DNA from: Patescibacteria group bacterium
GTDB taxonomy: Bacteria > Patescibacteriota > Patescibacteriia > UBA1558 > GWA2-36-10
Reading direction: 5' to 3'
Length of the DNA: 64,000 nt
Assembly (NCBI GenBank): GCA_041662585.1
Contig: JBAZSG010000002.1
Span: 13,588-77,587, forward strand
Shown: in pieces, positions 3,100 through 54,606 of the stretch
Numbering within the stretch: the first letter of the stretch is position 1
Layout: each line of letters opens with the position of its first letter
The notes under the pieces: model-generated
Told to the model about the DNA's origin: nothing
The model's input: only the letters and a program-made list of their open reading frames with translations
Databases searched by the model: none
Made by a program: the position numbers and the translations under genes

Positions 3100-5505
<2,406 letters not shown>

Positions 5506-31679: not shown

Positions 31680-32474
31680 TTATAACAAAGTATTTTGCCA
31701 AGAATTCATCTTGCCCACTACTCGCATAGCTTTGATCCTGTCCAAATCAAACATTCGTAAAGCATCTCGCAAATGACAAAAGGCTTTAATCTTTTGACCA
31801 TTTATATTTTGAATATCAATCTTCCTGGTGGTTACTTCACCTTTTTCATCAATATAGTCTATCTCTATTTGATCACCATTTTTTAAAGCATTTTTTATTT
31901 TTTCTTCAATGGTAATATTGCCATTTTGTCTGCCCCAACGAGCTACAATATTTTCTTTGCGTCCAGCATTGTGATACCAAATATTTCCATGAACCAAACC
32001 ATAGTCATAAACCTCTTTGGTAACTTTGACATCATCTAAACAATATTTGATAAGGCTATCCCAATTATTACTTCTATAATAAGCAATAGCATCTAGTCCT
32101 GAGCCAGACTTTCCATAGCCCAGTGTAGACTGAGCTACACTTTCCAATTTTAATCGATGACCCAAAGCATGAACTACTTCTTCTAAAATATCTAAATGGG
32201 GTATAGAAAATAAATCAAAATCTTTGTAGTAAGGTTGAAGTACTGTGAGGTCAAAACTTTTACTATTGAAACCAATGAGTAATTTAGTGTTTTTTAAGAG
32301 CTCTAGCAGCTCGCCAAATTCCTCTTCTCTAAAGCCACGATATTTATCTTTGTTGTATGAATATACTCCAACCAAAGACACTCCCAATTTATGTAAATTG
32401 TGATGTCCACCCACCTCATCAAAGGTTTTTTTGGTTTCTAAATCCAAAACTATTATGTCTTTTTCTTCTTCCAT
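31680..32474 (-). CDS. DEDD-type 3'-5' exonuclease domain protein with C-terminal WYL-like extension
   Basis: IVLDLETKKTF...LIGFNSKSFDLTVLQ (exo motifs I/II), then HALGHRLKLES...YDYGL. The C-terminal 90 aa are unassigned. Confidence 0.5.
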   Translation of the reverse strand: MEEEKDIIVLDLETKKTFDEVGGHHNLHKLGVSLVGVYSYNKDKYRGFREEEFGELLELLKNTKLLIGFNSKSFDLTVLQPYYKDFDLFSIPHLDILEEVVHALGHRLKLESVAQSTLGYGKSGSGLDAIAYYRSNNWDSLIKYCLDDVKVTKEVYDYGLVHGNIWYHNAGRKENIVARWGRQNGNITIEEKIKNALKNGDQIEIDYIDEKGEVTTRKIDIQNINGQKIKAFCHLRDALRMFDLDRIKAMRVVGKMNSWQNTLL

Positions 32475-32530: not shown

Positions 32531-32553
32531 TACTCATATTTTGTCCCACGGCT
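32531..32553. repeat. 23-bp sequence gctccgttgctgcgcaaagtcgc, left copy of an inverted-repeat pair
   Basis: An exact reverse-complement copy lies at 35828-35850. This copy sits between the exonuclease gene start and the helicase gene end. Confidence 0.75.
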
Positions 32554-32613
32554 CCGTTGCTGCGCAAAGTCGCCGCTGTTACAAAATATTCGTAATTATA
32601 TAATTTTAAAATA

Positions 32614-34611
32614 TTACCAATCACTTACATCGGGTAAAAATCCATCCGGATCAGCCACATATTCTAAACCATCTTCTTGACTATAGCTAGCACTACGCGC
32701 CATATTATTGTGATTGAATAAATTACTATCAATATCAGCCAAAAATGGAGAAGGCTTGAGTGAGTGGAAACCATCATATCTAACCATAGACATTGGATAA
32801 GTCAAATATAGATAACGCGCTGCACGAGTGGCCGCTACATAAAACAAACGTCTTTCTTCTTCTCTTTCTTCCTCTTTAACACATAGCGGATGAGGAAAAG
32901 ATTGATCAGTCATATTTATAACAAAAACAGCTTCCCACTCTAGGCCTTTGGCTTGATGAACAGTAGATAGTATTATATTATCTTGTTTTTTGTCTGACTC
33001 TCTGCCAGAAAAACTTTCTTGTAAGCTTATTTCCGATAAAAATAAATCCAGAGAGTCGTAGCCAGTCGCAAAGATAGCTAGCTGCTCAAGATCATCTTGA
33101 CGCTGACGATAATCTGTAAATTTTTCTTTAAGATATGAATGATAAAATTCAATAATTATATTTATAAGTTTGCTAACATTGGCAGTTTTGTTTTTGAGTA
33201 AATCATCTATAACCATCAGTATCTGAGACCAAGATTCTCCTGCTTTATCAGTCATGTTGAATCCAGATTCTCTGAGCTTGGACAAATCGCTTGTCTCTAC
33301 TATCTGCTGATATATTCTAAAAGCAGTCACTGGACCAATGCCTTCTTCCATTTGCAATATTCTACGCCAAGCTACTTCATCTCTATAATTACCCAATACT
33401 TTTATATAAGCTAATACATCTTTAATATGAGCTCTTTCAAAAAATCTCAGTCCCCCACGCATTTCATAATTGATGCCTCGACGATTGAGCTCCATTTCCA
33501 AGTTTTGACTATATGAGGCTGCTCGAAAAAGTATAGCAATTTGATCTGCTCTAAGCCCTTTGTCAAAATATTGTTCTATCCTATCAACTATAAAAGTCGC
33601 TTCCTGAGTGGGAGTCATGAGAGCTGCCAGCTCTGGCCTGACATGAGATTCTCTGACTGCTTTTAAATTTTTGGGAAATTGATGAATATTGGCGGCGATG
33701 ATTTGATTGGCTACATCTAGTATCTCTGGAGTAGAGCGATAATTTGTTTCCAGCTTATGAACTTTTGTTTTCTTAAACTTATCTGGAAATTCCAAAATAT
33801 TTCGTATATCAGCTGCCCTGAAAGAATAAATACTTTGTGCATCATCGCCAACAGCTAAAATATTGTTGTGCAATTTGCAAATATTAAAAATAATCTCCGC
33901 TTGAATATTATTGGTATCTTGATATTCATCAACCAAAACATATTCCCATTTGTTTTGTAATATTTTTCCGGCCTCGGGATGCTCACTAAGAACTTTCCAA
34001 AAAACCAATAAGTCATCAAAATCCAAAACATTTGATTCTTTTTTTCGTCTTTTATATTCACTAGCTATTTTCTCAATATTTTCTAGCAAGATTATCCATT
34101 CGGGAAATTTTGTTTCCAAACTACTTGCAATGTTAATACCAGAATTGGTAGCAAAACTAATAGTCTCTCTAATAATTGCTGGCGAAGGACGATGTTTGGC
34201 TGGTAAAGAAGATAAATAATCTTTGGAAATCAATTTTAGTAAATTGTCACTATCATCACTATCAATAATAGTAAAGTCAGATTTGATATCAATGTACTTG
34301 CCATAAAATCTAAGCAATCTATTGGCCAGAGAATGAAAAGTTCCTCCCCATAGTGGCAACTTGGCTTCCAATTTAAAACCCAATAAAGATTTTACTCGCC
34401 CCAACATCTCGCTAGCTGCTTTGTTGGTAAAAGTTAAGAGCAGTATCTTCTCTGGTTTTACTCCTTGATTTAAGAGCCATGCAGCCCGATAAACCAAAGT
34501 GCGAGTTTTGCCACTGCCAGCTCCAGCCAAAACCAAATGAGGTCCTTTACCAGCGGTTACGACCTCATATTGCTCCTGATTTAGTTCATTTTTAAAATCA
34601 ATACTCTTCAT
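32614..34611 (-). CDS. UvrD/PcrA/Rep-family ATP-dependent DNA helicase
   Basis: Walker A in VLAGAGSGKTRTLVYR. VDEYQDTN motif. Helicase motifs IV-VI: TNYRS...LSTVHQAKGLEW. Confidence 0.85.
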   Translation of the reverse strand: MKSIDFKNELNQEQYEVVTAGKGPHLVLAGAGSGKTRTLVYRAAWLLNQGVKPEKILLLTFTNKAASEMLGRVKSLLGFKLEAKLPLWGGTFHSLANRLLRFYGKYIDIKSDFTIIDSDDSDNLLKLISKDYLSSLPAKHRPSPAIIRETISFATNSGINIASSLETKFPEWIILLENIEKIASEYKRRKKESNVLDFDDLLVFWKVLSEHPEAGKILQNKWEYVLVDEYQDTNNIQAEIIFNICKLHNNILAVGDDAQSIYSFRAADIRNILEFPDKFKKTKVHKLETNYRSTPEILDVANQIIAANIHQFPKNLKAVRESHVRPELAALMTPTQEATFIVDRIEQYFDKGLRADQIAILFRAASYSQNLEMELNRRGINYEMRGGLRFFERAHIKDVLAYIKVLGNYRDEVAWRRILQMEEGIGPVTAFRIYQQIVETSDLSKLRESGFNMTDKAGESWSQILMVIDDLLKNKTANVSKLINIIIEFYHSYLKEKFTDYRQRQDDLEQLAIFATGYDSLDLFLSEISLQESFSGRESDKKQDNIILSTVHQAKGLEWEAVFVINMTDQSFPHPLCVKEEEREEERRLFYVAATRAARYLYLTYPMSMVRYDGFHSLKPSPFLADIDSNLFNHNNMARSASYSQEDGLEYVADPDGFLPDVSDW

Positions 34612-34728: not shown

Positions 34729-35790
34729 ATGTCATTTTCTCTGGGAATTGTCGGTCTACCAAATGTTGGTAAATCAACTCTATTTCAAGCATTAACCAAA
34801 AATAAGGTAGAAGCATCCAACTACCCTTTTTGTACTATTTCCCCAAATGTTGGTGTAGTAGCCGTACCAGATAATAGACTAGACCAGCTGGCTCTGATAT
34901 CAAAATCTGCCAAAATAATTCCCACTACTATAGAATTTGTAGATATTGCCGGACTGGTCAAAGGTGCTTCAGAAGGAGAAGGTTTGGGTAACAAATTTTT
35001 ATCAAACATCAGAGAAGTAGATGCTATAGTCCAAGTCATTAGAAAATTTACTGACAAAAATGTCACGCATGTTCATGGTAATATTGATCCTGAATATGAT
35101 AAAGAGATTATAAATCTAGAACTCATCATGGCAGACCTTGATGTGGTCTCCAAATATTTGACCAAAATAATTTCTAAAATGAAAGGTCCTTATGATAAAA
35201 TTTTGGACCAAGAAAAAGCTATAATGACTAAAGCCAAAGCCCAGCTAGAAGAAAATAAACTGCTCAATACTTTGGAATTAAATGAAGAAGAAGCAAAATT
35301 AATAAAACAACTCAATTTACTGAGCATCAAGCCAATAATATATTTATACAATATTGATGAGGCTGATCTTGGAAAAAATTTGTCTTTACCAGAGGGTTCC
35401 ATTGCTATTTGTGCCAAGACCGAGTCTGAATTAGCTGAATTGTCTGAAGCTGAAGCCAAAGAATATATGCAAGAGCTGGGTATTTCTGTTAGTGGCTTAG
35501 ATAATTTAATTACTACTAGTTACAAATTATTAAAACTAATTACTTTTATTACTACTGGCCCAGAAGAAACTAAGGCTTGGACTGTAACAGAAGGTACCAA
35601 AGCTCCTCAGGCTGCCGGAGTTATTCATACTGACTTTGAGCAAGGTTTTATTCGAGCTGAAGTTATAAATTGGCAACAACTTTTAGATGATGGCGGTTGG
35701 AATGCTGGAAAAGAAGCTGGTCATATGCGCATGGAGGGCAAAGAATACACTATGCAAGACGGTGATACAGTGCACTTTCATTTTAATTAA
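34729..35790 (+). CDS. ychF: Ribosome-binding ATPase YchF (Obg-family GTPase)
   Basis: [23 protein letters not shown]...[11 protein letters not shown]-terminal TGS domain ([11 protein letters not shown]...). Confidence 0.9.
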
Positions 35791-35827
35791 AGCATTTTTT
35801 AATTTCAGATTATTGTGAATGTTTTAT

Positions 35828-35850
35828 GCTAGATGCGACTTTGCGCAGCA
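35828..35850. repeat. Right copy (reverse complement) of the 23-bp inverted repeat
   Basis: gcgactttgcgcagcaacggagc. It is embedded in a local hairpin: atgttttatgc...gcataaaacat. Confidence 0.75.
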
Positions 35851-36175
35851 ACGGAGCAGTCTGCATAAAACATAAACAAAAAAATATCTTTAAAAAACTA
35901 ATTATATAAATTTGCTCTTAGTCTAAGCTATCGTTAACGGCCTTCGCCTAATCACTCTTAGCTTAGACTATTCGCAAAAAATATACTTTTTGTAATAAAA
36001 ATATGCTATAATATACTTATCGTAGTTCTTTGTTATAAATTCTTTGTAACAAATACTAACACAAGTAAAACGTGCTCAATGAAAAAGCACCTAAAAATAA
36101 ATATAAAATACTTGGCTAATATTTAAAACAAAGATAACAATTAATACAATTGAATATGGACATGGAAGTCTTCTA

Positions 36176-36214
36176 GAATTCCACCTACATTGGGGCAGGT
36201 GGAATTCTTTTTTT
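36176..36214 (+). terminator. Strong rho-independent terminator (11-bp stem plus T7) inside a long intergenic region
   Basis: gaattccacct-acattggggc-aggtggaattc-ttttttt. No annotated plus-strand ORF precedes it for about 380 bp after ychF. Confidence 0.85.
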
Positions 36215-36215
36215 A

Positions 36216-36244
36216 TTGACAAAAATACTTCTTATGAAATAATA
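36216..36244 (+). promoter_or_regulatory. Candidate sigma70 promoter for the 36259-38798 operon
   Basis: TTGACA (36216-36221) - 17 nt - ATAATA. Confidence 0.4.
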
Positions 36245-36258
36245 TACATATATAATAT

Positions 36259-37719
36259 ATGAACAAAGAAGAAGTTAGAAAACAACGAGATCATATAATT
36301 TCTCAACTTAAACAATATTCTCCACTGTTTAAGCCTTTTTTTGAAATGGATAAAAGTTTGGAAGAATACTCAAAAAATATCTATGATTTTGATAGAAATT
36401 ATAGATATATAGAAAGGCAGAAACAAATCAAAAAACTAATTGAGAATAAATTTAAAAAATTATTTCCTAAAGAATATGATAGCTTAAACATAGATTATAA
36501 TGATCAGTGGGCTTGTAATATAGTAGACCATCACCAAATTCTAAACAATCCTCTTATAATATCTAGCAATATTATAACTAGCATTGATAAATTTCTAAAA
36601 GATGAAAAACAAAAAGCAATAATAACCATATCTAGTGGTGATGTACCACCTAATAATTACTTTAGTCGTAACGGTTTTGAAGTAGCTGGTAAAAGAGTGC
36701 CTATATTTACTAATAAAGAAAAAGAATACAATTCTAATCTACTACCTAAGCGTGATTTTGATTTCCTAAAAAATCTGAAACTAGCTAAACGCCTAAATGA
36801 ATTTAACAAAGAAGAATTAAAATTCTTAGAAGAAGAAGTGAAGTGGATCCAAGGCCTAGACTATTCTGGTTGTGATAACTACAACGATCAAATATCAGTA
36901 CTTGTAAAAAATCAATGGCCAAGAATGTACGAAGAGAAAATAAGATCTACTTTACCTGATTTACTATACATAACCCAAGAAAATATAACTACCCTATCAC
37001 TTCTAGAAATATTAGATCAAGATAATCTAGTAACTTATACCTTATTTAACAAAGCTTTCAGAGAAAAAGTTATTAAAACATTTAGAGGTATTGTCGTTAC
37101 TTGGGATGAAAGCTTACCTAAAGGGACACACTTCTTCTGGAGGAAACATCCAGATGGCTTTAAATCTTTAAGGCTTTATTTAGAAGGTGATAAATTAGTA
37201 CCAGAAGATAGTCGTTACAAGAATTTAACCTTTACACTAGATCAAAAAACTGTAAGGGAACTCTTGGAAAAAGGAGAAATATACCCAAGTCTATTTACAA
37301 TATTTATGGTAGTTAATTTCTATTATGGTATCAAACCTTTAGTTGGACAAGGATCACTTACTTATTTAAATTTAATAAGACAAAAATGGCTCAACGTCTT
37401 AGAAGAGTCTGATTACGCTAGTGAATTAGATAATATAAAATCATATAAGATAGATAAACTAATAACTGGTATTATAATATTTTTTGAAAAGCATAACAGT
37501 GGTGTAAAAACACTCTGGGCTTATGATATTATAAAACAAGGTGGGATAAAAGAAGAATACCTAAAAAAATTATTTGATATGCCTTTTAAAAATTTGCTAA
37601 CAACAGCTGTAGTTGGTATCTATGATTATATTGGCCCTAAATACGTACCAGAGAAAGAAAGAATTATACCTACTGTTACATCGGATGAATTAGCTAATTT
37701 AATATTTAACTGGTTATGA
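36259..37719 (+). CDS. Hypothetical protein (486 aa), first gene of a two-gene module
   Basis: Long ORF, K/N/I-rich, with no recognisable catalytic motif. Its stop overlaps the next start (ATGA). Confidence 0.5.
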   Translation: MNKEEVRKQRDHIISQLKQYSPLFKPFFEMDKSLEEYSKNIYDFDRNYRYIERQKQIKKLIENKFKKLFPKEYDSLNIDYNDQWACNIVDHHQILNNPLIISSNIITSIDKFLKDEKQKAIITISSGDVPPNNYFSRNGFEVAGKRVPIFTNKEKEYNSNLLPKRDFDFLKNLKLAKRLNEFNKEELKFLEEEVKWIQGLDYSGCDNYNDQISVLVKNQWPRMYEEKIRSTLPDLLYITQENITTLSLLEILDQDNLVTYTLFNKAFREKVIKTFRGIVVTWDESLPKGTHFFWRKHPDGFKSLRLYLEGDKLVPEDSRYKNLTFTLDQKTVRELLEKGEIYPSLFTIFMVVNFYYGIKPLVGQGSLTYLNLIRQKWLNVLEESDYASELDNIKSYKIDKLITGIIIFFEKHNSGVKTLWAYDIIKQGGIKEEYLKKLFDMPFKNLLTTAVVGIYDYIGPKYVPEKERIIPTVTSDELANLIFNWL

Positions 37720-38798
37720 TAAATAAAATAAAAAAAATAACTTGGCTAGCTGTTTTTTCCAGAGCAGGCTTTCCTTATTTTATAGTAGACTTAGCTATCA
37801 ATGCTTACGTTTTAGATATGAAAAAACGTCTATCTTGGGGATATAGAGACCAATTAATGCTTATACGAAAAAATTTAATTACTTCCTACTATTCTAAAAG
37901 AGATGAGGATAGTTTTAAAGAGTGGTTAAAGAAACAGAATGAAAAAAAGCTAGAAAAAATAAATAATATAATCTTAAAACAATTAAAAGAATCTAAAAAT
38001 TATATTGCTAAGACCAATAAATTATTAAAAAATGAGAATAGTTTAATAACATCTTTAGATTATATATACAAAGCCTACTATAATCTTTATGCAATCTATC
38101 GTTTCCCTACTATCTTAGATACAAATAATAAAAATCTAGTATCAAATGAACTAATAAAAAAATTTGCTTCTACTAAAGATAAGTGTGGATTCTTTTTTGG
38201 AGAAAGTGATTCTAGTACCCTAAAAGAATTTAATAAGCTAGCTTCAAAAAAACTAAAATTAGCCTCCTACTCTGCTTTGGATATGAGCTATAAAGAATTA
38301 CGTGAATCTTTATTAAAAAACAAAGTAAGCGTTTCCAAAAAAATATTAGAGCAGAGACTAAATAAATTTATTTTTGCTGTTAGCGATAAAAAAAGTAAGG
38401 TATATTACGGTAAACAGGTAGATAGTTTAATTAAAACTTTAGAGAAGCAAGACAATATTAAAAGTACTTCCTTAAAAGGTCAAATAGCCTACCCAGGAAA
38501 AATAAAAGCTAAGGTATTAATTGCTAAATCAGTAGATGATTTAAAAAATTATAAATTTAAAACAAAAATAATCTTAGTAGCTCCTATGACTACTACTTAT
38601 TTTATACCTTATATAAAAAATGTATCTGCTATTATAACCGATGAAGGGGGAATTACTTGTCATGCTGCTATACTAGCCAGAGAATTTAAAAAACCATGCC
38701 TAATAGGTACAAGATATGCTACTAAAATATTTAAAAACGGCGATCTGGTAGAAGTAGATACCGACAAAGGAATAGTAAAAATATTAGAAAAATTATAA
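37716..38798 (+). CDS. Hypothetical protein with C-terminal PEP-utilizing-enzyme mobile (phosphohistidine swivel) domain
   Basis: The C-terminal ILVAPMTTTYFIPYIKNVSAIITDEGGITCHAAILAREFKKPCLIGT...GDLVEVDTDKGIV parallels ppsA [22 protein letters not shown]. The N-terminal 270 aa are unassigned. Confidence 0.6.
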   Translation: MINKIKKITWLAVFSRAGFPYFIVDLAINAYVLDMKKRLSWGYRDQLMLIRKNLITSYYSKRDEDSFKEWLKKQNEKKLEKINNIILKQLKESKNYIAKTNKLLKNENSLITSLDYIYKAYYNLYAIYRFPTILDTNNKNLVSNELIKKFASTKDKCGFFFGESDSSTLKEFNKLASKKLKLASYSALDMSYKELRESLLKNKVSVSKKILEQRLNKFIFAVSDKKSKVYYGKQVDSLIKTLEKQDNIKSTSLKGQIAYPGKIKAKVLIAKSVDDLKNYKFKTKIILVAPMTTTYFIPYIKNVSAIITDEGGITCHAAILAREFKKPCLIGTRYATKIFKNGDLVEVDTDKGIVKILEKL

Positions 38799-38828
38799 TC
38801 TATCTTTGCGCCACATATTAATGTAACG

Positions 38829-38898
38829 CATCCCGCCTTTGGCGGGATCAAGAATTCGTAACTACTTAGACTTCGTCTTCGTAGACGAATTCTTGATA
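38829..38898. terminator. Two adjacent hairpins between convergent genes (atcccgcc-ttt-ggcgggat; tcaagaattcgt-N25-acgaattcttga)
   Basis: 8-bp and 12-bp perfect stems. Convergent 3' ends of the module and queA. Confidence 0.6.
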
Positions 38899-39914
38899 AA
38901 CATGGCGTCACCAAAAGAAAAAAATCTATATTTTAACTTGATAGCTTTTTTATAAGCCTTTAAAATAAATTCTCTGCCAGCCAGAGCTGAGACCATAAAG
39001 AGCAGGGAGCTTTTTGGTAAGTGAAAATTGGTAATCAAATCATCGACAAACTTGTATTTATAACCTGGATAAATATAAATATCCACCCATTTAGAACCTG
39101 CCTTTAATTTACCAGATTTATCACTAAAAGCTTCTAGTGTTCTAGCACTGGTAGTGCCAATTGCTATTATATTTTTACCCTGCTTTTTTAGTTTATTTAA
39201 ATTATTAGCCGTACGCTTACTGATACTAGCCCACTCATGATGAATCTGATGTTTTGAAATGTCTTCTACTTCTACTGGCGCAAAAGTGCCCAGTCCAACA
39301 TGAAGTGTCACTTTAAATACTTTGATTTTTTTCTTTGCTAATTTATCTAAAATAGTTTTTGTAAAATGAAGGCCGGCTGTTGGCGCCGCTGCAGATCCAG
39401 ATGACTTGGCATAAACTGTTTGGTAATCTTTCTTAATACTTTTACTATCTTTAGTTTTAATATATGGAGGCAGTGGCGTATGACCAATGGCTTCTATAAT
39501 ATTTTCTAATTTCTTATTAGCTAAATTAAATTTTATTTGCTTGATTTTACCATCTATATTATCAATTATTTTGGCCTCTAATTTTTTACCAAAATATATT
39601 GTATCGCCTATTTTAATATTTCTTCCTCCGATCATAGCCAAGTAATATCCTCTGGCTTGCTGCTCAATTAATAATAGCTCTACTTTGCCTCCAGTTTTTT
39701 TGTGTCCATAGAGCCTAGCTGGAAAAACTTTGCTTTCATTGACTACCAAAACATCATTGGCCGTAAGATAGTCTGGTAAATCATAAAAATGTTTATGAGT
39801 TATTTTTTGTTTACTGCTATCCAATAGCAAAAGCCGCGAATGGTCTCGCGGTTTTATTTGCTTTTGAGCTATCAGCTCATGAGGTAAATGATAATCAAAA
39901 AGATTAATTTTCAT
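38862..39914 (-). CDS. queA: S-adenosylmethionine:tRNA ribosyltransferase-isomerase
   Basis: MKINLFDYHLPHELIAQKQIKPRDHSRLLLLD... Confidence 0.85.
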   Translation of the reverse strand: MKINLFDYHLPHELIAQKQIKPRDHSRLLLLDSSKQKITHKHFYDLPDYLTANDVLVVNESKVFPARLYGHKKTGGKVELLLIEQQARGYYLAMIGGRNIKIGDTIYFGKKLEAKIIDNIDGKIKQIKFNLANKKLENIIEAIGHTPLPPYIKTKDSKSIKKDYQTVYAKSSGSAAAPTAGLHFTKTILDKLAKKKIKVFKVTLHVGLGTFAPVEVEDISKHQIHHEWASISKRTANNLNKLKKQGKNIIAIGTTSARTLEAFSDKSGKLKAGSKWVDIYIYPGYKYKFVDDLITNFHLPKSSLLFMVSALAGREFILKAYKKAIKLKYRFFSFGDAMFIKNSSTKTKSK

Positions 39915-53949: not shown

Positions 53950-54267
53950 CTATACAAATCGACTAGCAAAAAATATAGCTGTAGCCAGACCGATAAACCA
54001 AAGCAGTGCCGACGCTACTGATTGGCCAAATTTTTTGCGCCGACTAGACACTTCGCTTCTACCAAGAACTCTTTTGTTCTTTGAGGCAAAACTAGTGCCT
54101 TCACCACTGTTTAGTGTGAATATATGAAGTGGTGGTTTTTTGAGTCTTTCTTGTTGGCCATTATACTTTAATGGTCTTTTGGTTTTTATGGCTACCAACA
54201 CAAACAAAGCCAAAAGGCCAAAAATAATGGCTATAGCTTGAAAGTCCATACCTGCAAAAAACTTCAT
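53950..54267 (-). CDS. Small 2-transmembrane-helix membrane protein (105 aa)
   Basis: ORF with two hydrophobic helices and a basic central loop. About 330 bp of unusually GC-rich noncoding DNA lies upstream. Confidence 0.4.
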   Translation of the reverse strand: MKFFAGMDFQAIAIIFGLLALFVLVAIKTKRPLKYNGQQERLKKPPLHIFTLNSGEGTSFASKNKRVLGRSEVSSRRKKFGQSVASALLWFIGLATAIFFASRFV

Positions 54268-54606
54268 AAACGTTCCTTTCTTTTTTGCTGGTTAGTGGTA
54301 TGAAAAAGAACTTAAGTTACAAAAAAATACCTCTCCAGGCATTTTTGTAAATCAAGCTCATAATATGAGTTTTATCTACACAACGCCGGTTACGCTACTA
54401 GCTCCAAACTGTCCAAGCGTCCAAATACAGACAGTCCTTCATCGCCTCATTGAATGATATTTAATGTAATCAATAATAACTTAACATAAATATTTTATTT
54501 TGTAAATATTATAAATTTAATGCCCAAAACCAATACTTTTGTTTTTTTATTCATTTTGTTGTATAATATACTTATCTAAAAAATAAAAATCAATTAAAAT
54601 AAAATT

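Follow-up and report, generated by a model that had tools for sequence, protein, structure and literature searches.

Known split dikinases and the P1-P2 module

The precedent for a split dikinase is HpeHI of Rhodococcus, in which HpeH joins a rifampicin-binding domain (RIF-BD) to a phosphohistidine swivel domain and HpeI is a separate ATP-grasp protein (PMC12167813). CreHI of Corynebacterium and the phenylphosphate synthase PpsAB of Thauera follow the same plan, with an H or A protein made of a substrate domain plus swivel and a separate ATP-grasp I or B protein of ~35-40 kDa. Such two-component dikinases have only lately been recognised as a subfamily, and solely in aromatic catabolism. The module described here lies in a 64-kb stretch of a Patescibacteria metagenome-assembled genome (MAG), called the window below, and consists of two genes, P1 and P2:

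36259..37719, forward strand: P1 gene, open reading frame (ORF) of 486 aa
37716..38798, forward strand: P2 gene, ORF of 360 aa

The ORFs share four bases, ATGA, which indicates translational coupling; the first-pass annotation had described two coupled, overlapping genes of these lengths, and its coordinates proved exact. P2 very probably represents the H component of a split two-component dikinase, an assignment drawn from its profile alignment to rifampicin phosphotransferase (RPH), its RPH fold matches, a catalytic dyad and the swivel His. P1 is an independent, strongly conserved protein family and not the N-terminal half of a dikinase, since its orthologues occur without a swivel gene nearby. 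The combined reading, in which P2 acts as split-dikinase H component and P1 separately consumes or makes the activated intermediate of its partner, is about evenly balanced between right and wrong.

P2 resembles HpeHI, CreHI and PpsAB in its swivel motif, its catalytic His and the RPH-type homology upstream of the swivel, and in relatives the genes encoding a PPDK_N domain only adjoin P2-like genes. Unlike the H and A proteins of ~600-640 aa, P2 has ~360 aa and retains only the distal substrate domain, which implies an acceptor site that is small or else made complete by a further protein. Further differences are the Lys-Asp dyad of P2, the lack of an adjacent ATP-grasp gene in the window and the setting of the P1 module, which has no aromatic-catabolism context. 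In Patescibacteria and DPANN archaea, moreover, swivel genes form arrays of up to 8 paralogues that are tied to the P1 family, unlike anything in the three described systems.

Beyond the swivel, the best structural and profile match of P2 is RPH (5FBS, 5FBT and 5FBU; PMC4844700). The two share a C-terminal swivel His and an equivalent dyad, and a toggling mechanism is expected for P2 as well. RPH, however, combines an N-terminal ATP-grasp and a full RIF-BD of ~430 aa in one chain, whereas P2 has no ATP-grasp and is missing two-thirds of the RIF-BD, on the proximal side, and nothing points to a rifamycin substrate. The swivel itself parallels that of the phosphoenolpyruvate (PEP) synthase PpsA encoded in the same window, as first noted from the letters alone: the two are 43% identical over 81 aa, and the P2 stretch GGxTCHAAIxAR is PEP-synthase-like. 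Unlike PpsA and pyruvate phosphate dikinase (PPDK), P1 and P2 have neither PPDK_N nor the PEP-utilizers_C TIM barrel, and the swivel of P2 is C-terminal, not central.

P2 joins a swivel to a truncated, probably RPH-like substrate domain

P2 divides into two parts:

37716..38465, forward strand: N-terminal domain, aa 1-250, made of a small alpha/beta unit and a long helical bundle
38466..38798, forward strand: C-terminal phosphohistidine swivel domain, aa 251-360, with T308xxGGxxxH316

The swivel gives the sole Pfam match in P2 (PF00391, PEP-utilizers, aa 283-352, E 1.3e-21), which upholds the initial call of a C-terminal PEP-utilizers mobile domain with a conserved His. It carries the motif TDEGGITCHAAILAR, read as T308-DE-GG-ITC-H316, and the codon of His316 lies at 38661-38663. 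Across the P2 family (n=32) the T/SxxGGxxxH motif is invariant, with the His present in 32/32 members.

Recognisable homology reaches well beyond the swivel. Against the PDB, positions 129-354 of the P2 family profile align to residues 642-866 of RPH-Lm (5fbs; E 7.6e-28), and the distal N-terminal domain (~aa 129-250), which falls on RPH residues 642-766, is homologous to the end of the RPH RIF-binding domain; the first impression that only the last ~100 aa could be recognised does not hold. The same profile matches PEP synthase 8a8e at E 1.4e-42, and PEP synthase, PPDK, pyruvate kinase and Enzyme I align with it over the swivel domain only. The AlphaFold2 (AF2) model of P2, built on 32 relatives (pLDDT 93.7), contains the alpha/beta unit, the helical bundle and the swivel. 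Its best Foldseek matches are the RPH structures 5fbu, 5fbt and 5hv1, at E 1e-8 and over 267-368 aligned columns, compared with a swivel of ~100 aa.

Residues of the RPH active site have counterparts here. Mutation of Arg666/Glu667 in RPH abolishes the second phosphotransfer and not the first (PMC4844700), and this catalytic dyad aligns with K154-D155 of P2 (38175-38180). The corresponding position holds R in 20 and K in 8 family members (n=32), and the next residue is D in 11 of them and E in 6, so that the Lys-Asp pair of P2 appears from the alignment to be a conservative substitution of Arg-Glu, not an identical dyad. E194 and R214 are invariant in the family, and the helical domain is otherwise poorly conserved apart from a few charged residues.

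About 600 relatives of P2 (~600 detectable, 330-510 aa) come from Patescibacteria and DPANN archaea; they carry PF00391 alone and are named at best 'PEP-utilizing enzyme'. P2 adds a new, truncated variant to an enzyme class that was recognised only lately. Swivel-only tandem arrays of 3-8 paralogues, often overlapping, were also observed in Patescibacteria and in a Woesearchaeote (L068:7376-13368, L069:102-11780, L001:1711-9983 and L030:938-6062, where L numbers denote loci). The array proteins measure 340-510 aa, plus one of 893 aa, and in those of ~480 aa the helical domain seems to be duplicated internally, as the P2 hidden Markov model matches them twice.

The ATP-grasp domain is encoded by separate genes in relatives

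Neither protein of the module contains an ATP-grasp domain. Pfam searches give no PF01326 (PPDK_N) match in P1 or P2 at E<=1, and NCBIfam likewise returns no ATP-grasp family. Comparison by hhalign gives a probability of 0.3% for the P1 family against stand-alone PPDK_N, 0.3% for P2 against PPDK_N, and at most 0.6% (<=0.6%) for P1 against PPDK_N and against P2. Among the 50 best Foldseek matches listed for P1 there is no ATP-grasp or dikinase structure. A cryptic ATP-grasp in P1 or in the N-terminus of P2 is ruled out by these Pfam, NCBIfam, hhalign and fold searches together. The PPDK_N signature of the RSSATAED type, reported as missing from both proteins in the first-pass annotation, is indeed found only in the PpsA of the window.

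These results bear on the suggestion that the ~750 residues preceding the swivel hide the divergent nucleotide-binding part of one RPH-sized enzyme. That suggestion is not supported, because P2 alone is recognisable, PPDK_N is a separate gene in relatives and P1 occurs without a swivel. A related explanation, that an ordinary RPH or PEP synthase was broken by a frameshift into a pseudogene or split gene, takes its appeal from the combined length of 846 aa, near the 865 aa of RPH, and from the 4-nt ORF overlap. The likeness in total size, also remarked on at the outset, is coincidental. Both ORFs are intact and are kept separate at these lengths in dozens of genomes, and P1 resembles neither PPDK_N nor the RIF-binding domain in sequence, profile or fold. 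A frameshifted enzyme is therefore effectively refuted and barely credible, in agreement with the initial view that P1 plus P2 is no standard or broken PEP synthase, PPDK or RPH.

In relatives, PPDK_N is encoded by genes of its own, with PF01326 at E about 1e-95 in proteins of 314-374 aa, typically ~314 aa. Such stand-alone PPDK_N genes adjoin swivel genes in at least ten P1 loci (L010, L016, L017, L026, L027, L038, L042, L045, L070 and L071), in the order P1-swivel-PPDK_N in L016 and L017 and PPDK_N-swivel in L010 and L071. They are very common and 70-80% identical across named Patescibacteria lineages. This high conservation would fit one ATP-presenting subunit that serves many diverged swivel paralogues. 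In a Buchananbacteria-type operon, the swivel and PPDK_N genes are separated by genes for an M29/NicX-like protein and for four conserved proteins of 213, 257, 275 and 278 aa that have no Pfam domain, the two longest being paralogues; the intervening genes are at L001:10099-13183, L026:8568-10814 and L009:3247-4074.

The window itself offers one protein with this domain:

3100..5505, reverse strand: PpsA, full-length PEP synthase with Pfam PPDK_N, PEP-utilizers and PEP-utilizers_C, outside the operon

Since it holds the only PPDK_N domain in the window, PpsA is the sole visible candidate there for charging P2 in trans. By BLASTP, its N-terminus shares only 36% identity with the PPDK_N proteins that stand alone in relatives. 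PEP-utilizers_C is absent from P1 and P2, and a jackhmmer search of the window with the C-terminus of PpsA finds PpsA only.

P1 belongs to a large unannotated family

P1 has no Pfam match at E<=1 and no NCBIfam, PADLOC or PDB sequence match, and its initial description as a protein of unrecognised family agrees with the Pfam and NCBIfam results. Its 88 close homologues, almost all of 485-490 aa, come from Patescibacteria, are named 'hypothetical' and lack Pfam domains. A profile search of 1.84 billion representative proteins extends the superfamily to 898 clusters at 50% identity (E<=1e-3), or 227 at E<=1e-30, with proteins typically of 450-560 aa and members in Streptomyces, Kitasatospora and Dactylosporangium. 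None of 67 diverse superfamily members has a Pfam or NCBIfam match, and P1 profiles of 37 and 67 sequences retrieve nothing from the PDB. A sequence-level link to solved structures was consequently dropped, with the PDB profile searches empty and an hhalign probability of 0.6% against methionyl-tRNA synthetase (MetRS).

Conservation within the family is concentrated in a few motifs. D90-H91 (36526-36531), Q211, G289-T-H291-F-F-W294, G357 and G363 are family-invariant, and H91, Q211, G289 and G357 are invariant throughout the superfamily. Close homologues share N-I-x-D-H-H, SSGDVPPNN and KGTHFFWRK.

The AF2 model (pLDDT 93.5, pTM 0.92) predicts that P1 is an alpha/beta Rossmann-type enzyme. Foldseek against the PDB yields a single significant match, BshC (4wbd, E 1.1e-5), with both full lengths aligned and a TM-score of 0.34; class I lysyl-tRNA synthetase (1irx, E 0.05) and then arginyl-tRNA synthetase follow as weaker matches. 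The model thus weakly resembles BshC and the catalytic domains of class I aminoacyl-tRNA synthetases. HUP-class enzymes bear a HIGH or HxGH motif after the first beta-strand, and the invariant His91 of P1 directly follows the first beta-strand; on inspection, the P1 sequence shows neither HIGH nor KMSKS in canonical form.

BshC, the putative cysteine-adding enzyme of bacillithiol synthesis (4WBD), is similar in size to P1 (540 versus 486 aa) and likewise lacks canonical aminoacyl-tRNA synthetase signatures. No reconstitution of its reaction has ever been achieved, and an activated substrate or a partner protein, as yet unidentified, is presumed to be required (PMC5790435). Unlike BshC, P1 matches neither PF10079 nor the NCBIfam BshC model, has no bshA or bshB context, and comes from a candidate phyla radiation (CPR) bacterium that is not a bacillithiol producer.

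The fold relationship raises the alternative that P1 is itself the charging partner, a Rossmann/HUP ATP-binding protein in place of the ATP-grasp, so that P1 and P2 would form a complete, novel two-component phosphotransfer enzyme. Its nearest fold class (class I aminoacyl-tRNA synthetases and BshC) binds ATP, and the two genes are translationally coupled. No PPDK_N-only gene was found in the window, and loci L001, L068 and L069 combine P1 with 5-8 swivel genes and show no PPDK_N within +-6 kb. Yet PPDK_N-only genes stand beside P1-swivel pairs in the ten or more loci listed above, in L026 the PPDK_N gene lies at the far end of an operon syntenic with that of L001, and P1 orthologues 43-49% identical occur in swivel-free operons. 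HUP enzymes, moreover, cut ATP at the alpha-beta bond to give adenylates, which is not the beta-phosphoryl transfer needed by the swivel His, and the lack of HIGH and KMSKS in P1 speaks against the idea as well. A charging role for P1 is hence improbable, and a separately encoded PPDK_N-type protein remains the preferred ATP-presenting partner of P2.

P1 neighbours an intermediate-forming enzyme

The linkage of P1 was followed in 75 loci collected from genomes and metagenomes, 62 of them distinct. A downstream gene was counted if it lay on the same strand and overlapped P1 or began less than 200 nt from it. Directly downstream of P1 were found:

22/62 distinct loci: D-Ala-D-Ala-ligase (Ddl)-like ATP-grasp, usually followed by an M19 dipeptidase
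16/62 distinct loci: P2-like swivel gene
8/62 distinct loci: contig end
16/62 distinct loci: neither, mostly distant non-CPR members

Counted within ~6 kb, a swivel or PPDK_N gene accompanies P1 in 28 of the 62 loci. The swivel linkage spans P1 clades 32-64% identical, and in one of these clades P1 lies within tandem arrays of 5-8 swivel paralogues (L068, L069). In Patescibacteria, P1 almost always directly precedes a phosphoryl-transfer enzyme, either a swivel protein or a Ddl-like ATP-grasp, which suggests that P1 would make or consume the phosphorylated intermediate of its partner. A real functional link between P1 and P2 is likely.

Could the two genes instead be unrelated neighbours, with P1 doing something else and P2 working by itself as part of a small-molecule kinase, for instance one that resembles RPH, acts on xenobiotics or antibiotics and is charged by PPDK_N? 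P2-like genes do turn up in many unrelated settings (next to dnaK/dnaJ and a HAD hydrolase, near genes of glycogen metabolism, within swivel arrays of archaea), and P1 is found alone or with other partners. On the other side stand the same-strand swivel genes directly after P1 in 16 distinct loci across clades 32-64% identical, the P1 adjacency of P2's nearest orthologues (L001, L006, L026 and L027) and the ATGA overlap, with the translational coupling it indicates. Chance adjacency has little probability against a functional P1-P2 link.

The ATP-grasp partner recalls the vanA/vanX logic of a Ddl ATP-grasp plus dipeptidase, which the 22 loci with a Ddl-like grasp and usually M19 resemble. The P1-associated ligase, however, scores 111 bits against a Ddl cut-off of 243, the dipeptidase is M19 and not of the M15 VanX type, P1 has no counterpart in van clusters, and the grasp-M19 arrangement is not present in this window. 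Swivel genes and ATP-grasp plus M19 were also considered as mutually exclusive partners; this idea was dropped in view of mixed operons (L045, L050, L054, L038 and L042), including P1-grasp-M19-PPDK_N in L045, P1-grasp-M19-swivel in L050 and swivel-swivel-PALP-M19-P1-grasp in L054.

Another alternative is a relay in the manner of the phosphotransferase system (PTS), in which P2 would act like Enzyme I, its helical domain would dock P1 and His316 would phosphorylate P1, for example at His91. The P2 model matches the N-terminal domain of Enzyme I over 277-291 columns (E about 3e-5), the helical domain is little conserved but for a few charged residues, and the D-H-H motif of P1 contains an invariant His. 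The dyad kept in P2's own domain argues instead for small-molecule phosphorylation, the Ddl-like carboxylate-amine ligase that is P1's other partner phosphorylates no proteins, and no HPr-like fold is involved. Such a relay is very unlikely, and transfer from P2 to a small acceptor is preferred.

Other genomes place P1 in further company. One fusion protein (P0296) joins a P1 domain to an LdmS-like ATP-grasp; a second joins P1 to a CntK-like histidine racemase and lies beside a Glu-Cys ligase and an ATP-grasp of the L-amino-acid-ligase type. ATP-grasp domains thus accompany P1 solely as neighbouring genes or as additional domains in fusions. Actinomycete P1 genes come after bona fide homologues of HypF and HypE, in a cluster without hydrogenase context. 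What these settings share is an enzyme next to P1 that makes a phosphorylated or adenylated intermediate. Some neighbours are of a sulfur-amino-acid type (Glu-Cys ligase, LdmS-like ligase, S-adenosylhomocysteine hydrolase/MetK, a PALP enzyme and MetRS); a sulfur-amino-acid theme was not upheld by an unbiased census of 116 neighbours and is a lead, not a finding.

Two further observations concern these loci. The actinomycete cluster of Streptomyces angustmyceticus, Kitasatospora and Dactylosporangium (L028:3070-9461, L023:970-7500 and L025) encodes an isochorismatase, a DUF3865/HDO-like protein, HypE, HypF, the P1 homologue, an agmatinase-like protein, a nitroreductase and an MFS transporter, and it may direct the biosynthesis of a small molecule (cyano or carbamoyl?). 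Signs of decay are present in L015:6001-7464, where P1 is split by a frameshift, in L005:7451-7633, where a 60-aa ATP-grasp remnant follows P1, and in L008:8847-9098, which holds a PPDK_N fragment.

Proposed mechanism

The proposed cycle would begin with a separately encoded PPDK_N-type protein that presents ATP; in this genome it would be encoded outside the window, or the role would fall to PpsA. His316 would then attack the beta-phosphate, giving AMP and pyrophosphoryl-His and then phospho-His, with release of Pi as in RPH and HpeHI. The swivel would next return to the helical domain of P2, where K154/D155 would hold the phosphoryl group in place for its transfer to a small acceptor. These steps are suggested by homology with characterised enzymes and by the conserved catalytic residues. 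For the final step, in which P1 would make the acceptor or consume the phosphorylated product, the evidence is genomic context.

Most plausibly, P1 would catalyse a ligation or transfer that acts on a metabolite resembling an amino acid or a dipeptide. Amino-acid or dipeptide chemistry is suggested by the fold relatives of P1 together with the ligases, dipeptidase, racemase and decarboxylase near family members. This assignment of a reaction class is tentative and somewhat doubtful.

Several observations weigh against the scheme. The substrate domain of P2 spans ~250 aa where RPH and HpeH have ~430-470 aa, and the alignment covers no more than its final ~120 aa; the first ~128 aa have no sequence-profile match in the PDB, and the domain may serve for docking instead of forming a binding pocket. 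Lys-Asp stands in place of Arg-Glu in the dyad, and P2-like genes are common without P1 nearby (L029-L031). No stand-alone PPDK_N was found across the 64-kb window, where jackhmmer was used, or the 8 kb that adjoin it on the left, and none from this MAG is among the best 120 PPDK_N homologues listed. P1 also occurs without swivel genes, next to the Ddl-like ATP-grasp and M19 or to HypF/HypE, in orthologues 43-49% identical with the same length and motifs, so the coupling could be loose. Its likeness to BshC is one Foldseek match with a TM-score of 0.34 and no sequence-profile support. The idea of an amino-acid-like substrate rests on a handful of gene contexts, and the census of 116 neighbours returned housekeeping functions only (CvpA, MetRS, RsmI and an S41 peptidase).

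Operon layout and genomic context

The module is flanked by elements that would set it apart as a transcription unit:

36175..36215, forward strand: terminator-like hairpin upstream of P1, a 12-bp stem at 36175-36208 followed by U7
36216..36243, forward strand: candidate sigma-70-type promoter for P1-P2, TTGACA, 16-nt spacer and extended -10 (TG)AATAAT
38830..38848, strand not assigned: GC-rich hairpin between the convergent P2 and queA genes
38862..39914, reverse strand: queA, convergent with P2
38872-38889: second downstream hairpin, inside the 3' end of queA

The upstream hairpin (36175-36208) folds at -17.6 kcal/mol with a z-score of -3.6, and 0/200 shuffled sequences fold as stably. As a terminator-like element, it would end any transcript from the 468-nt spacer ahead of P1 and so insulate the module. 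The promoter candidate abuts its 3' side and is the top-scoring site within 35600-39100, a consensus match only, with 11 of 12 positions plus the TG. Downstream, the segment 38799-38862 folds at dG -19.6 (z -3.9), and the hairpin at 38830-38848 could serve as a bidirectional terminator. The insulation originally described, a terminator upstream and a double hairpin downstream, is thus present at 36175-36208, 38830-38848 and, within queA, 38872-38889.

Composition also distinguishes the two genes, as the first reading had remarked. Their GC contents of 28.5% (P1) and 26.2% (P2), against 34.1% for the window, rank fifth and second lowest of 48 genes, and Lys makes up 16.7% of P2 compared with 9.7% of window proteins. 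The neighbours are housekeeping genes: ychF, a UvrD-like helicase, queA, ruvB and gyrA, together with a DUF208/QueH-like ORF named by eye from its sequence, without a profile test. An anti-phage defence system was considered and set aside, with no PADLOC match and an empty BFVD fold search.

The spacer ahead of P1 (35791-36258) is unusually long at 468 nt; it is not conserved in the closest relative, L006, where only ~100 nt separate the genes. It contains hairpins at 35819-35872 (dG -26.9, z -5.1) and 35919-35970 (dG -20.3, z -4.9) and a further promoter-like site at 35990-36017. This site, the spacer hairpins and the 36175-36215 terminator could define a small transcript of ~190 nt; an Rfam search of the spacer gave only sub-threshold noise and no known RNA element. 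Part of the first hairpin (35835-35857) recurs as an exact inverted copy of 23 nt at 32551-32573, between the genes at 31680..32474 and 32614..34611, and the repeat may be a short dispersed palindromic element. Elsewhere in the window, a cyclic-di-GMP-II riboswitch aptamer lies at 54375-54458 on the reverse strand (RF01786, 68.4 bits; gathering score 53.5), with an ORF of 105 aa downstream of it at 53950..54267 on the same strand.

Significance for Patescibacteria and the P1 family

The literature searched contains no account of the arrangement of stand-alone PPDK_N with multiple swivel proteins in CPR bacteria or DPANN archaea, or of its linkage to P1. Nothing in this module falls categorically outside known biochemistry. 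The data show its domain identities, catalytic motifs and gene linkage and that P1 and P2 have no ATP-grasp, and the key functional claims (charging of P2 in trans, functional coupling of P1 and P2, class of chemistry) are put forward here as inferred. The split dikinase architecture nonetheless appears common in these groups, as a conserved PPDK_N protein combined with many short, fast-evolving swivel proteins. Names such as 'pyruvate, water dikinase' or 'PEP-utilizing enzyme' are misleading for proteins of the P2 type, because these lack the ATP and PEP/pyruvate domains.

A broader proposition, unlikely on present evidence, is that P1 represents a new, widespread family of BshC-like fold that relies on a partner for a phosphorylated or adenylated intermediate, supplied by a split dikinase, a Ddl/LdmS ATP-grasp or HypF/HypE. 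The likeness of P1 to BshC may bear on the unresolved step of bacillithiol synthesis. If the proposition were true and BshC worked alike, it would explain why BshC could not be reconstituted in vitro and would tell what type of partner to seek. The swivel arrays of Patescibacteria, together with one conserved PPDK_N, would then form a modular activation system feeding P1, and the module offers a testable way into a block of conserved 'hypothetical' CPR genes.

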